From an uncultured Chloroflexia bacterium (GTDB lineage: Bacteria; Chloroflexota; Limnocylindria; QHBO01), in assembly GCA_963805305.1 (NCBI GenBank), contig CAWDTM010000008.1, positions 328,317 to 392,316 on the forward strand: a stretch of DNA of 64,000 bases, written 5' to 3'. The translations under genes were made by a program, and so were the position numbers. Positions 22,000-55,830 of this stretch are shown piece by piece (positions within the stretch are counted from its first letter, which is position 1; the number at the start of each line of letters is the position of its first letter). The notes beneath the pieces are model-generated. The model was not told the DNA's origin. It saw nothing but the letters and a program-made list of their open reading frames with translations, and made no database searches.

Positions 22000-22076
<77 letters not shown>

Positions 22077-49926: not shown

Positions 49927-50745
49927 CTAGGAGCTGGCCTCGACGGCAGGAACCGCGGTCTTGCCCTTCGGCCAGTAGAGCTCCTTCTTGACATGAAACT
50001 CGGGGAATCCGGACGCCATGAGAATGCCCTCGACGTTGAGGATCATCTCGGGATTCCCGCAGATGTAGACGACGGTTCGCTCCGGGCGCAGCCCCATGTC
50101 GTGGCAGACCGCCTCCACGATCGTCTCAACGCGTCCCGTCCGGCCCGTCCAGCTCGCATTCCTCGGGTCGTTGGGCCGGGAGACGGTTGGTATGTAGCGG
50201 ACCGGATACGTTCCGTCAGCCTCCCAGCCGCGCAGGAGCTCCGCGTAGCCGAGCTCGTTGGCGTACGAGCAGCCGTGGAGCAGCACGGTCTGCCGCGGTG
50301 CGCCCGCCGCCAGGGACTCGCGCATCATGGCCAGGAAGGGCGCGATGCCGGTCCCGGTGGAGACGAACAGGTGCGTCCGGTCATCGTCGGGCTCGAGCAT
50401 GAACTTGCCCTTGGGCCCGATCATCCGCATCCGGTGCCCGATGGGCAGCCGCCAGAGCAGGGTCGTGAAGCGCAGGATGGGGACCAGCTTCACGTAGAAC
50501 TCGTAGCCCTCGGTCCCCGCATCGCGCGGGGGCGAGGCGACCGAATACGGCCTCTGGACGATCTTCCCGTCCGCGTAGACGCCGATGGTCATGTACTGGC
50601 CGGGCTCGAACGGCGTGGCCTCGTCGTCGAAGCGAACCCAGAAGTAGCCCAGGTCCTCGGTCTCGTCGACGCGGCGAATCAGGGTCGCGTTGTAGGTGGG
50701 GTGATCGGCCTCGATGGCTCGTGCGTCAGCGTCATGGTCGTTCAT
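49927..50745 (-). CDS. Ferredoxin--NADP+ reductase (FNR-type flavoenzyme)
   Basis: RPYSVAS FAD motif, GKF, and GTGIAPF NADP motif. C-terminal 272 aa of the long minus ORF 49927..52479; the remainder of that ORF is antisense to metG. Confidence 0.8.
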   Translation of the reverse strand: MNDHDADARAIEADHPTYNATLIRRVDETEDLGYFWVRFDDEATPFEPGQYMTIGVYADGKIVQRPYSVASPPRDAGTEGYEFYVKLVPILRFTTLLWRLPIGHRMRMIGPKGKFMLEPDDDRTHLFVSTGTGIAPFLAMMRESLAAGAPRQTVLLHGCSYANELGYAELLRGWEADGTYPVRYIPTVSRPNDPRNASWTGRTGRVETIVEAVCHDMGLRPERTVVYICGNPEMILNVEGILMASGFPEFHVKKELYWPKGKTAVPAVEASS

Positions 50746-50793
50746 CTTCGGATCCAAGTGTAGCCGCGGTCCGGGTAGAATCGGCGCCCGACC

Positions 50794-52374
50794 ATGCGAG
50801 ACCCAGACCGCTTCTACCTGACCACGGCGATCTTCTATCCGAGCCCTCGGCCACCGCTCCATTCCCTCTTCGAGGTGATCGGCGCGGACGTCCTGGCGCG
50901 GTACCACCGGCTGCTCGGCGACGACACCCGTTTCCTGACCGGCATGGACGAGCACTCGGCCCAGGTCGAGCCCCTCGCTCGCGAGCACGGCACTGATCCG
51001 CGCTCCCTCGTCGATGCCTGGGCTCCCGCGTGGCGGGAACGTTTCGACCGCTTCGCCATCAGCTACGACCGCTTCATCCGCACCACCGATGCGGACCACG
51101 TGCGGGCCTCGACCGAGATGGTGCGCCGGGCTCGCGCCAACGGGGACATCTACAAGGGCGTGTACTCCGGCTGGTACTGCCCCGGAGACAACGAGTTCAA
51201 GACCGATTCGCAGCTTGTCGACGGCCACTGCCCGGATCACCCGACCCTCGAGCTGGAGTGGCTCGAGGAGGAGAACTACTTCTTCCGCCTCTCTGCCTAC
51301 CAGGAACGACTCGAGACCCTCTACCGCGAGAACCCGTCGTTCTGCGAGCCGGAGCATTTCCGGAACGAGGTGCTCGCCTGGCTCCGCGAGGGGCTGCGCG
51401 ACTTCAGCATCAGCCGGGCCGGGGGCAGCTGGGGGATCCCGTTCCCGGACGATCCCGAGCACCGGATCTATGTCTGGTTCGACGCGTTGACCAACTACGT
51501 CACCGGCGCCGGCTTTCCCGACGACGCGGAGATGTTCGCCCGCTGGTGGCCGGCCGACGTGCACGTCATCGGCAAGAACATCACCCGCTTCCATTGCCTC
51601 TACTGGCCCGCGATGCTGATGAGCGCCGGCCTGCCTTTGCCCCGGGCGGTGTTCGCGCACGGCTTCATGCTCCTGCGCGGCGAGAAGATGTCGAAGACGC
51701 GCGGCAACGTCCTGGATCCCGACGAGGCGGTGGACCTCTTCGGGGTGGACGGCACGCGCTATCTCGTGCTGCGCGAGATCCCGTTCGACCGCGACGGCGA
51801 CATCAGCGTGGAAGGGCTCATCCGTCGCTACAACGCGGACCTCGCCAACGACCTGGGCAATCTCGTGAACCGGACCGTGAGCATGAGCGCCCGTTACGCC
51901 GATGGCGCCCTGCCGACGGTGGCGTCCGCGACCCAGCCAGCCGATCTCGAGCTTCGAGCGGCGGCCGAACGGACGGTCGCCGCCTATCACGGCGCGATGC
52001 GCGCCCTGCACTTCGACGAGGCGCTCGCGGCGATCATGGAGCTCACCCGAGCAGGCAACGGCTACGCGGAGTCGCAGGCTCCGTGGAGCCTGAACCGCGC
52101 GGGCGAGCAGGACCGGGTACGCGAGGTCCTCTCCGCGATGGCGGAGACCTGCCGGATCCTGGGCCACCTCGTGGCACCCTTCACGCCTGCCGCATCGGCG
52201 CGCCTCGCCACCCAGCTGGGCGTTTCCCAGCCGTATGACGCACGCGGCGCCGGCGGCCCCGGGCTCGCCGCGCTCCTGGCCTGGGGCGGCGGTCCGGACG
52301 GTTGGCAGACGGGCAACGCCGAGCCGCTCTTCCCGCGCACGGAGCTGCCGGTGGTGGAGGAGGCCGCGCCCTGA
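50794..52374 (+). CDS. metG: Methionine--tRNA ligase, short form without a C-terminal tRNA-binding domain; HIGH motif degenerate
   Basis: Class I aaRS core: LTGMDEHS, KMSKTRGN (KMSKS motif), zinc-knuckle cysteines. The position aligned to HLGH reads PLHS. Confidence 0.85.
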   Translation: MRDPDRFYLTTAIFYPSPRPPLHSLFEVIGADVLARYHRLLGDDTRFLTGMDEHSAQVEPLAREHGTDPRSLVDAWAPAWRERFDRFAISYDRFIRTTDADHVRASTEMVRRARANGDIYKGVYSGWYCPGDNEFKTDSQLVDGHCPDHPTLELEWLEEENYFFRLSAYQERLETLYRENPSFCEPEHFRNEVLAWLREGLRDFSISRAGGSWGIPFPDDPEHRIYVWFDALTNYVTGAGFPDDAEMFARWWPADVHVIGKNITRFHCLYWPAMLMSAGLPLPRAVFAHGFMLLRGEKMSKTRGNVLDPDEAVDLFGVDGTRYLVLREIPFDRDGDISVEGLIRRYNADLANDLGNLVNRTVSMSARYADGALPTVASATQPADLELRAAAERTVAAYHGAMRALHFDEALAAIMELTRAGNGYAESQAPWSLNRAGEQDRVREVLSAMAETCRILGHLVAPFTPAASARLATQLGVSQPYDARGAGGPGLAALLAWGGGPDGWQTGNAEPLFPRTELPVVEEAAP

Positions 52375-53204
52375 GCCGGCGCCGCGGTCCGCGACATCTT
52401 CCGGGGATCGTCGACTCGCACGGGCATCTGCAGCATCCCGCCTTCGACGAGGACCGTGCCGCGGTCCTCGAGCGGGCACGCACGGCCGGCTTCACGCGCA
52501 TCGTCGTCCCCGGCTGGGATCGAACCTCATCCGAGGCCGCGGTGGAGCTCGCCGCGCGGCATGCCGACCTCCTGGTGCCCGCGGTCGGCATCCATCCGCA
52601 CCATGCCGAGGAGGCGACGGAGACCGACTGGGCCGTCATCGAAGCCCTGGCCACGGAGGCGAGCGTCCGTGCGATCGGCGAGATCGGCCTCGACTTCTTC
52701 CGTCTGCTCGCCCCCGCCGAGGCCCAGCGGGAGGCGCTGGCACGCCAGCTCGAGATGGCCGCGACTGCGGGCAAGCCGGTGCTGATCCACGATCGCGATG
52801 CGCACGACGAGGTCGAGCAGCTCCTCATCGACTGGGCCGGTCCGGCCGGTCGGCCGCTGCGCGGCGTCCTGCATTGCTTCTCCGGGGACGGAGCCATGGC
52901 CAGGCGTCTTGCAGCCGGGGGATACCTCGTCTCATTCGCCCTGCCGCTGACGTTCCGCTCCGCCACGGGGCCTCGCGAGGCGGCCGCGGCGTTGGCTCCC
53001 GAGTCGATCCTCGTTGAGACGGACGCGCCGTGGCTGGGTCCGGGCCCAGACCGGCGGAATGAGCCGATCACCGCGCTCCGCGTCGCGGCCGAGGTGGCTC
53101 GGCTGCGTGGGAGCGACCCCGAGACGGTGGCCCGCACGGTGGCTGCGGCGCTCGACCGCCTCCTGTTCGACGGGGCGGGGGACGCTGGCACGCAACGTGC
53201 ATGA
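52302..53204 (+). CDS. tatD: TatD-family metal-dependent hydrolase/DNase; start uncertain (overlaps the metG 3' end)
   Basis: [29 protein letters not shown] and VETDAPWL are TatD motifs. It is the conserved neighbour of metG. Confidence 0.75.
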
Positions 53205-53835: not shown

Positions 53836-54147
53836 ATGGCCAAAAAGGTAGCCGGAGCGACGAAGCTCAAGCCCCTGGGCGATCGGCTCGTCATCAAGCC
53901 CACGCCGCGCGAAGAGACGACGAAGAGCGGCATCGTGCTGCCGGACACCGCGAAGGAGCGCCCGCAGGAGGGCACCGTCCTGGCGGCCGGACCGGGCCGC
54001 ATCCTGGACGACGGGTCCCGCGAGGCGATGGACGTCTCCGTGGGCCAGAAGATCCTGTTCCAGAAGTACGCCGGCACGGAGTTCAAGCTGGACGAAGAGG
54101 AGCTCCTGATCCTCTCCCAGAAGGACGTCCTGGCCGTCATCGAGTAG
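53836..54147 (+). CDS. groES: Co-chaperonin GroES
   Basis: [12 protein letters not shown]...[35 protein letters not shown]. Confidence 0.95.
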
Positions 54148-54204
54148 TCGTCCCGGGTCGCCTGAGGCGAGTTCCGCGGATTGCTAAGGAGGAAACACAC
54201 ACCC

Positions 54205-55830
54205 GTGGCGAAGCAGCTGCTATTTGATGAGGAGGCGCGTCGAGCGCTCAAGCGCGGCGTGGACAAGATGGCCGAGGCCGTCAAGGTCACGCTTGGCCCC
54301 CGCGGCCGGTACGCGATCCTGGACAAGAAGTTCGGTGCCCCGACGATGACGAACGACGGCGTCACGATCGCGCGCGACATCGAGCTCGAAGATCCCTACG
54401 AGAACATGGGGGCCCAGCTCCTCGAGGAGGTCGCCGCCAAGACGAACGACGTCGCGGGCGACGGCACCACGACGAGCATCGTGCTGGCCCAGGCGATCAT
54501 CACCGAAGGGCTCAAGAACGTGACCGCCGGCGCCAACCCAATGGGGCTGAAGCGCGGGATCGAGCGCGGCGTGGCTGCGGTGGTCGAGGAGATCAAGACC
54601 CTCACCAAGCCGGTCGACAGCCGGGACGACATCGCCCACATCGCCTCCATCAGCGCGCGCGACACCGATATCGGCAACACCATCGCCGAGGTGATGGAGA
54701 AGGTCGGCAAGGACGGTGTGGTCACCGTCGAGGAAGGGCAGGGCCTGAAGCTCGAGATCGAGTACGTCGAGGGGATGCAGCTCGACCGCGGCTACGTCAG
54801 CGCCTACATGGTCACCTCGAACGACGGCGGTCGCATGGAGGCCACCCTCGACAACACGTACCTGCTCGTCACCGACAAGAAGATCAGCGCCGTTGCCGAC
54901 ATCCTGCCGGCGCTCGAGAAGGTCGTCTCGCAGGGGCGTCCGCTCCTGATCGTCGCCGAGGACGTGGACGGGGAGGCGCTCGCCACCCTGGTGGTGAACA
55001 AGCTGAAGGGCACGCTGAACGTCCTCGCGGTGAAGGCGCCGGGCTTCGGCGATCGCCGCAAGGCGATGCTCGAGGACATCGCGATCCTGACCGGGGCCCG
55101 CGTGATCAGCGAGGAGGTCGGGCGGAAGCTCGACAGCGTCCAGCTCGAGGATCTCGGGCAGGCTCGCCGGGTGACCGCCACCAAGGACACCACCACCATC
55201 ATCGATGGGAAGGGCGCCGAGGACGCGATCAAGGCCCGCATCGGCCAGATCAAGCTCCAGATCGAGGACACCACGAGTGACTTCGACCGGGAGAAGCTCC
55301 AGGAGCGCCTGGCGAAGCTCTCCGGCGGCGTCGCCGTCCTGAAGGTCGGCGCGGCCACGGAGGTCGAGCTCAAGGAGAAGAAGCACCGCATCGAGGATGC
55401 CCTCTCGGCCGCTCGTGCAGGGATCGAGGAGGGGATGGTCGCCGGTGGCGGCTCCGTCCTGGTCCATGCCGTCCCCGCGCTCGACAAGGTCGAGGCGCTG
55501 GGCGATGAGGCGGTCGGCGTGAACATCCTGCGCCGTGCGCTCGAAGAGCCGCTTCGCCAGATCGCGGCGAACGCCGGCCAGGAGGGCTCCGTCGTGGTCG
55601 ACGCGGTCCGCAAGATGAAGCCCGGCCACGGGTACGATGCCCAGAAGGGCGAGTACACCGATATGTTCGCGGCCGGCATCATCGACCCGGCCAAGGTGAC
55701 GCGCTCCGCGCTGGAGAACGCTGCGTCCGTCGCGGCGCTGCTCCTGACGACGGAGACGATCATCACCGACCTCCCCGAGAAGGACAAGGCCCAGATGCCG
55801 GGCATGCCGCCCGGCGGCATGGACTACTAG
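54205..55830 (+). CDS. groEL: Chaperonin GroEL
   Basis: [29 protein letters not shown] and a C-terminal GGM-type tail ([11 protein letters not shown]). AAGGAGG RBS before GTG. Confidence 0.95.

Follow-up and report, generated by a model that had tools for sequence, protein, structure and literature searches.

In many isoleucyl-tRNA synthetases of the IleRS2 type the class I signature H-x-G-H is replaced by [G/A]-x-H-H (Brkic et al., Nat Commun 2023, PMC10485003). This is the only documented natural case in which the signature's positions 1 and 3 are exchanged; it was described in 2023 as 'adopted exclusively in IleRS2', was explained as an antibiotic-resistance adaptation and confers up to 1000-fold resistance to mupirocin (PMC10485003). 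The natural ALHH IleRS2 of Deinococcus radiodurans is fully active, with a kcat of 45.5 s-1, and in crystal structures of IleRS2 the Nε2 of the third-position His takes the place of the Nε2 of the first-position His (PMC10485003). Natural reversion of the motif has been described in Deinococcus-Thermus (PMC10485003), and the variant is still regarded as typical of IleRS2 in a preprint that appeared in this field in 2026. In methionyl-tRNA synthetase (MetRS) the first His and the Gly of the signature are regarded as invariant. Here we describe a MetRS gene, metG, in a 64-kb stretch of DNA from an uncultured member of the Limnocylindria, phylum Chloroflexota (GenBank assembly GCA_963805305.1, contig CAWDTM010000008.1, positions 328,317 to 392,316; the whole stretch of 64,000 nucleotides is referred to as the window), whose product carries P-L-H-S in place of H-x-G-H. 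The sequence comparisons presented below identify an exchange of positions 1 and 3 in a type-1 MetRS (MetRS1), previously described for one IleRS type only, and point to a conserved, class-wide variant of an essential enzyme. The protein is likely an active housekeeping MetRS in which the signature has been permuted and not lost, with His23 (H23) supplying the transition-state-stabilising imidazole from position 3. Searches of the literature brought up neither a MetRS with a non-canonical HIGH motif nor any work on Limnocylindria synthetases.

The gene and its signature are located as follows:

50794-52374, plus strand: metG, type-1 methionyl-tRNA synthetase (TIGR00398, PF09334, PF19303, PDB matches and AlphaFold2 model).

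50854-50865, plus strand: class I signature P21-L22-H23-S24 in place of H-x-G-H (gapless alignment, conservation in the clade and AlphaFold2 helix).

The open reading frame (ORF) translates into a protein of 526 amino acids that starts MRDPDRFYLTTAIFYPSPRPPLHSLFEVIGADVLARYHR and has no C-terminal tRNA-binding appendix; an exact-sequence look-up of the protein returned no record. It scored 461.7 bits against the TIGR00398 (metG) model, the cutoff of which is 336.35, and matched the Pfam families PF09334 (tRNA-synt_1g, 332 bits) and PF19303 (Anticodon_3). Its top PDB matches in phmmer were all MetRS, namely the enzymes from Brucella (4dlp, 1e-130), Mycobacterium smegmatis (2x1l) and M. tuberculosis (5xet). 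An AlphaFold2 model built from 47 sequences of the clade displayed a mean predicted local distance difference test score (pLDDT) of 87.9 and a predicted template modelling score (pTM) of 0.89, with the KMSKS loop (residues 294-304) as the only low-confidence stretch. This loop is mobile in these enzymes, and low model confidence is hence expected there. The top 50 Foldseek matches to the model in the PDB were all MetRS, with template modelling (TM) scores of 0.81-0.90. Canonical MetRS1 enzymes of known structure (2x1l, 5xet/6ax8, 4dlp, Staphylococcus aureus 7wpi and Thermus thermophilus 1a8h) share 41-43% full-length identity with the window protein and agree with it in fold (TM 0.87-0.90) and in the order of the domains. 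These data identify the protein as a full-length MetRS1, a class Ia aminoacyl-tRNA synthetase.

Phmmer alignments with 4dlp, 2x1l and 5xet are gapless at the N-terminus, and place P20-P21-L22-H23-S24-L25-F26-E27 opposite P-H-I/V-G-H-A-Y-E. In the AlphaFold2 model the first Rossmann helix begins at L22, in the same register as the HIGH helix of MetRS, so that the N-terminus of this helix, where the canonical H-x-G-H resides, is occupied by P-L-H-S. The replacement had been reported in a first-pass annotation of the DNA and is borne out by these alignments. The peptide quoted there was also found, but it spans 50833-50910 and thus runs slightly past the end at 50900 that it had been given. A 506-residue PDB entry entitled 'Methionine--tRNA ligase' (9os7_C) aligned from residue 20 of the window protein to its own residue 3, and it appears to be without the strand that precedes the signature.

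The motif, encoded by CCG CTC CAT TCC, is a fixed feature of the close relatives of the gene. The nearest 120 protein clusters (75-95% identity), drawn from JGI, ENA, NCBI and Logan, with all named members belonging to Chloroflexota or Candidatus Limnocylindria, displayed [P/A]-[LI]-H-S in 120/120. Across independent assemblies, including the 2.09-Mb chromosome OY969424.1 and a 2.24-Mb contig, the motif differs by synonymous codons (CAT/CAC, TCC/TCG and CTC/CTG), while position 1 is encoded by CCG, GCG or GCC. In the window's clade position 1 is Pro in 101 of 121 sequences and Ala in the other 20, and position 4 is Ser in 121/121. The ratio of non-synonymous to synonymous substitution rates (dN/dS) over the whole gene is 0.07, at a dS of 0.45, against the closest relative (locus L002); metG is under purifying selection.

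The rarity of the exchange among MetRS was assessed by searching 1.84 billion cluster representatives, from which 141 MetRS1 (clusters at 50% identity) with a readable motif were recovered. In 138 of these position 1 is His and position 3 is Gly, which places the deviation of the window protein well outside chance. The three exceptions all carry G-L-H-T; two of them (53-59% identity) are nearer to the window protein than any other full-length sequence, and the third is 46% identical to it. Position 4 is more variable in canonical MetRS1 (n=136: H 91, T 22, S 10, N 7, F 4, W 1). As approximately one-third of the MetRS1 representatives lack a His at this position, Ser24 is in itself unremarkable, and it is the occupancy of positions 1 and 3 that sets the window protein apart. 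Among the same canonical sequences (P0124-P0270), D-E-H-S-x-N replaces D-E-H-G-x-K in 9/22 enzymes with Thr at position 4 compared with 6/91 of those with His, which suggests that position 4 is coupled to the Lys that corresponds to K54 of M. tuberculosis MetRS. A TrpRS-like signature was observed in the MetRS of the cultured bacterium Lactobacillus hominis DSM 23910 (L058:6001-7464) and of a Lactobacillus metagenome-assembled genome (MAG; L057:6001-7557), in which T-I-G-N (KLTIGNAYT) leaves no His at position 1 or 4.

Searches with the divergent sequences revealed further clades with His at position 3. A G-L-H-T query retrieved 123 clusters from Limnocylindrales or Chloroflexota, with G-[LVI]-H-T in 123/123. 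G-L-H-F (L016) and G-L-H-H (L017, and L020, a Candidatus Limnocylindria MAG) came to light when GTDB species genomes were scanned. When the L020 protein was used as the query, G-L-H-H was present in 94 of the 120 nearest clusters, which also included ∼22 canonical P-H-L-G-H clusters that are 70-79% identical to it, one of them named Candidatus Limnocylindria. In total, His at position 3 is invariant in 121 P-L-H-S, 121 G-L-H-T and 98 G-L-H-H sequences (340/340). Position 1 is Gly in both sister clades (121/121 G-L-H-T and 98/98 G-L-H-H), and His is retained at position 4 only in the G-L-H-H clade, the G-L-H-T clade having Thr. Conversely, the H-L-G-H relatives display His at position 1 and Gly at position 3 in 21/21. 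H23 is thus the sole residue that is common to all three swapped clades and absent from both the 136 canonical MetRS1 and the 21 H-L-G-H relatives; no other universal compensating substitution was found among the swapped clades. The only other candidate, V110 (51121-51123), is common to all Limnocylindria MetRS lineages, including H-L-G-H, where other MetRS1 have Trp, Phe or Leu. V110 is therefore at most permissive, and may be viewed as a shared derived character that is a candidate permissive change.

The history of the exchange was explored with neighbour-joining trees of two data sets from which the four motif columns had been removed. P-L-H-S sequences group with G-L-H-T (bootstrap 100 and 81 in the two data sets), and G-L-H-H, G-L-H-F and H-L-G-H sequences make up a second clade (bootstrap 100). 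The best tree unites all swapped sequences in a monophyletic group, with a bootstrap of only 43% for such a single origin. In the second clade H-L-G-H is a monophyletic group (bootstrap 100) with a G-L-H-H sequence as sister (78), and the large G-L-H-H group, followed by G-L-H-F, branches outside them. Because the H-L-G-H clade is nested inside the G-L-H-H/F clade, parsimony favours one reversion to H-L-G-H over three independent swaps. We propose that the permutation arose within the class Limnocylindria, where the motif exists as a series of G-L-H-H, G-L-H-F, G-L-H-T and [P/A]-L-H-S, with one nested clade apparently having returned to H-L-G-H. The P-L-H-S of the window appears as a further-derived form of the permuted motif. 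The closest canonical relatives by identity (49-50%) belong to a subgroup that combines H-x-G-T with D-E-H-S-x-N (P0148 and P0127; Acidobacteriota, Gemmatimonadota and Planctomycetota loci L025-L029). This subgroup shares with the window protein Thr or Ser at position 4, Ser55, a residue other than Lys at 57 and KMSKT, but its signature still begins with His and has Gly in third place. The names of these relatives were considered as a clue to the origin of the motif, but they derive from mixed phyla and are uninformative.

The resemblance to IleRS2 extends beyond the motif. Both are class Ia enzymes with positions 1 and 3 exchanged, an invariant His at position 3 and a small residue at position 1; in the Limnocylindria G-L-H-H clade the motif is exactly the [G/A]-x-H-H of IleRS2, as found in D. 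radiodurans and Streptomyces griseus. Like IleRS2, the Limnocylindria enzyme is probably the housekeeping copy; in both systems swapped forms are interspersed with canonical ones among near relatives, and there is an apparent natural reversion. In contrast to IleRS2, in which the swap is tied to mupirocin hyper-resistance, no natural-product or other natural inhibitor of MetRS linked to such a motif was found in the literature, and the MetRS exchange has no known resistance phenotype.

The remaining active-site, zinc and anticodon-binding elements of the window protein are:

50938-50964, plus strand: T49-G-M-D52-E-H-S55-A-Q57 loop (canonical T-G-T-D-E-H-G-x-K), with D52 kept, G55 changed to Ser and K57 to Gln.

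51178-51240, plus strand: connective-peptide knuckle C129-P-G-D132-N133-E134...C146-P-D-H149, with one Cys ligand lost (C132 to Asp) and Glu replaced by N133.

51469-51498, plus strand: Y226-V-W228-F-D-A231-L-T-N-Y235 segment, intact, with W228, A231 and Y235 invariant in all clades and canonical MetRS1.

51685-51699, plus strand: KMSKS loop K298-M-S-K301-T302, with K301 in 121/121.

51859-51873, plus strand: N356-L-V-N-R360 helix of the anticodon-binding domain (PF19303), intact, with N356 and R360 invariant in all groups.

52081-52086, plus strand: P430-W431 of the anticodon-binding domain, intact, with W431 in 121/121.

Y15, D52, W228, A231, Y235, H267, H289, K301, N356, R360 and W431 show no variation in the clade and agree with the consensus of canonical enzymes. 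We take the first seven of these, from what is known of the Escherichia coli and T. thermophilus enzymes, to be methionine-pocket or α-amino-binding residues, the Y226-Y235 segment to be the methionine pocket, and the helix with N356 and R360 to mediate recognition of the CAU anticodon. The KMSKS (as KMSKT, 51685-51699) and TGMDEH (50938-50955) regions are, as the first-pass annotation had stated, intact; Thr at the fifth KMSKS position also occurs in 24/136 canonical MetRS1. In the G-L-H-H clade (the L020 relatives, P0448-P0567) residues 298-302 read R-L-S-K-S instead of K-M-S-K-S, and the second Lys, K301 in the window protein, is Arg in 26/98 clusters of that clade even though it is otherwise invariant.

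Other positions close to the active site have changed with the motif. D52 is invariant in all groups compared, but in the window lineage the swap is accompanied by A25L, G55S, K57Q and E133N. Ser55 is present in 121/121 sequences (canonical: Gly 101, Ser 29) and Gln57 in 107/121 (canonical: Lys 107, Asn 23). Residue 133, Glu in 134/136 canonical enzymes, is Asn in 121/121 P-L-H-S and Gly in 121/121 G-L-H-T sequences, while the G-L-H-H clade keeps both Lys or Arg at 57 and Glu at 133. The zinc knuckle is reduced to C-x-x-D...C-x-x-H in the window's clade, and is kept as C-x-x-C...C-x-x-H in the G-L-H-H clade. S24 (in the region 50860-50865), Q57 (50962-50964) and N133 (51190-51192) align with H21, K54 and E130 of M. 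tuberculosis MetRS, and substitution of each of these by Ala reportedly led to the loss of almost all ATP-pyrophosphate exchange activity (bioRxiv 10.1101/2025.06.06.658285). The window protein therefore differs from canonical MetRS1 in the signature (P-L-H-S for H-x-G-[H/T/S/N]), in carrying Ser, Gln and Asn at the positions of these three mycobacterial residues and in the knuckle, and shares with it D52, W228, Y235, H267, K301, N356, R360, W431 and the metG-tatD context.

The genomic context was compared with that of related loci. The genes around metG are:

49927-50745, minus strand: ferredoxin-NADP-reductase-like (FAD/NAD-binding) gene, divergent from metG and 48 nt upstream of it (PF00970 and PF00175; the same neighbour in L001-L003).

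52302-53204, plus strand: tatD-family hydrolase, directly downstream of metG (PF01026, 219.5 bits, domain from residue 37).

53845-54147, plus strand: groES (PF00166; same order in L001-L004).

54166-55830, plus strand: groEL (PF00118; same order in L001-L004).

The adjacency of metG and tatD, which the first-pass annotation had pointed out, is confirmed by the PF01026 match and recurs in all related loci compared. Since the longest tatD ORF overlaps the metG stop codon, the true tatD start probably lies later than the ORF start. A block comprising metG, tatD, a small ORF, groES and groEL is common to the P-L-H-S genes (the window and L001-L003) and a G-L-H-T gene (L004). A G-L-H-H gene (P0452, in L087/L088) and a canonical H-L-G-H gene (P0518, in L085) have identical neighbours on both sides, with GCS2, DinB_2 and an M28 peptidase upstream, and tatD, DUF4349, COX2-COX1-COX3, Rieske and cytochrome b genes downstream. 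Because they share these flanking genes, the swapped and canonical forms are identified as positional orthologues, and as both occupy the metG-tatD locus in related genomes, the gene in the window is probably the positional housekeeping metG. Tblastn and motif scans for a second MetRS in the window returned only metG, other H-V-G-H and KMSR strings being in non-coding frames. For the loci with swapped motifs, no other locus from the same assembly was present among the best 80 genome loci listed, which is weak evidence against a second copy, and no large contig was common to two of the three clade lists obtained with the P-L-H-S, G-L-H-T and G-L-H-H searches. In L020 a further weak tblastn match, upstream of metG, is interrupted by stop codons and was discounted as spurious.

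The 48-nt gap between metG and the divergent gene (50746-50793) contains no Shine-Dalgarno sequence and has a TAGAAT at 50776-50781, 12 nt before the ATG, on the basis of which the metG mRNA may be leaderless or nearly so. A scan for consensus promoters and terminators around the metG start codon gave no matches. An 850-amino-acid antisense ORF (49927-52479, minus strand) that covers most of metG is a high-G+C artefact, of which only the last 272 codons (49927-50745) represent a real gene. The G+C content of the window is 69.8%. Elsewhere, the window encodes a class A bacterial RNase P RNA (2351-2673, 153.6 bits) and a tRNA-Val(CAC) (22000-22076).

By analogy with IleRS2 we infer that the Limnocylindria enzyme is catalytically competent, and that the catalytic imidazole is supplied by H23, at position 3, instead of by a residue at position 1. 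Located at the N-terminus of the first Rossmann helix, H23 would reach the phosphates of ATP and stabilise the transition state of methionine activation, while position 1 would be given over to a small or helix-capping residue (P21, replaced by Ala or Gly in relatives). Position 4, as Ser, would fall within the normal MetRS1 range, and the KMSKT loop, the methionine pocket and the anticodon-binding residues would function as usual. The first-pass suggestion of a real mechanistic oddity is supported, but its description of the motif as degenerate is not apt: the His is retained and has moved to position 3, like that in [G/A]-x-H-H of IleRS2, and many MetRS1 do without the fourth His. Several observations weigh against this proposal. 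IleRS1 does not tolerate the swap, which abolishes its activity (PMC10485003), and, in the account that Brkic et al. give of earlier work, a Gly to Pro change at position 3 of E. coli MetRS severely lowered kcat (PMC10485003), so that tolerance of the exchange should not be taken for granted. The comparison with IleRS2 is itself imperfect, as the window enzyme is a MetRS1, has Pro and not Gly or Ala at position 1, Ser at position 4 and only one His in the motif, and carries the additional G55S, K57Q and E133N changes. The equivalents of H21, K54 and E130, reported as near-essential in M. tuberculosis, are all replaced, and the score against NF008900, a stricter NCBI equivalog model, was 575.2, below the cutoff of 598.

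A more far-reaching reading is that the entire class relies for translation on a MetRS with a re-architected adenylation site. Two signature positions are exchanged and, in the window lineage, the fourth His is missing along with the equivalents of K54 and E130, each of them reported as near-essential by itself in M. tuberculosis; the transition state would then be stabilised differently than in canonical MetRS and in swapped IleRS2 alike. Such a site could have been selected as intrinsic resistance to a hypothetical soil natural product that hits the ATP/methionine site; we regard this as a tentative idea with a minority chance of being correct. Three rival explanations were weighed against a permuted, active signature. 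It is rather unlikely that the signature is simply dispensable, H23 having a structural role only in an active MetRS in which the KMSKT lysines, S24 and the remodelled residues 55-57 and 133 stabilise the transition state. TrpRS T-I-G-N, along with other class I enzymes with a divergent HIGH motif, illustrates that an active site can work without the two canonical His residues. In these enzymes Gly stays at position 3 and no His is placed there. Dispensability gains some credit from the variability of position 4 in MetRS1, from the L. hominis enzyme (L057/L058), which has no His at position 1 or 4, and from the extra changes close to the active site in the window's clade (A25L, G55S, K57Q and E133N). 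It does not, however, account well for the retention of H23 in 340/340 members of three independently diverging swapped clades and its absence elsewhere, or for the return of Gly to position 3 wherever His is back at position 1 (21/21), a reciprocity that a requirement for one His would predict; moreover, in the IleRS2 structures the third-position His mimics the first.

An impaired or repurposed MetRS-like paralogue, with a canonical metG elsewhere in the genome performing the housekeeping role, is improbable. The disappearance of both the invariant first His and the Gly, the replaced equivalents of three mutation-sensitive mycobacterial residues and the sub-threshold NF008900 score are what might be expected of such a protein, but the metG-tatD locus is conserved in every lineage examined, with the G-L-H-H gene being the positional orthologue of canonical metG, the methionine-, KMSKS- and anticodon-binding residues are invariant and the dN/dS is low. 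The additional metG copy envisaged by the first-pass annotation also finds no support in the window, which contains no second MetRS-like sequence, or in the assemblies and contigs of the lists described above. The likelihood that an H-L-G-H gene reads P-L-H-S through an error of sequencing or assembly, or through a frameshift, is negligible. In another frame 50840-50875 by chance spells R-A-L-G-H-R-S, but its 'LGH' comes from the variable codons 17-21, the first His is still missing and two compensating frameshifts would be needed; no shifted but intact H-x-G-H lies nearby. The error that the first-pass annotation had also considered is refuted because 120/120 related clusters share the motif, with sequences drawn from numerous independent metagenomes and from long-read chromosomes, and because its codons vary synonymously between the assemblies.

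With the same exchange present in MetRS1, permutation would no longer be peculiar to IleRS2 but would count as a solution that evolution has reached repeatedly for class I active sites. The class Limnocylindria offers a natural graded series, H-L-G-H, G-L-H-H, G-L-H-T and P-L-H-S, with which the contribution of each position can be tested, including orthologues that are ∼75-79% identical and differ in the motif. In practical terms, annotation and quality-control rules based on the motif would wrongly flag such essential genes as defective. The exchange also raises the question of whether a natural MetRS inhibitor was the driver of change in these bacteria.

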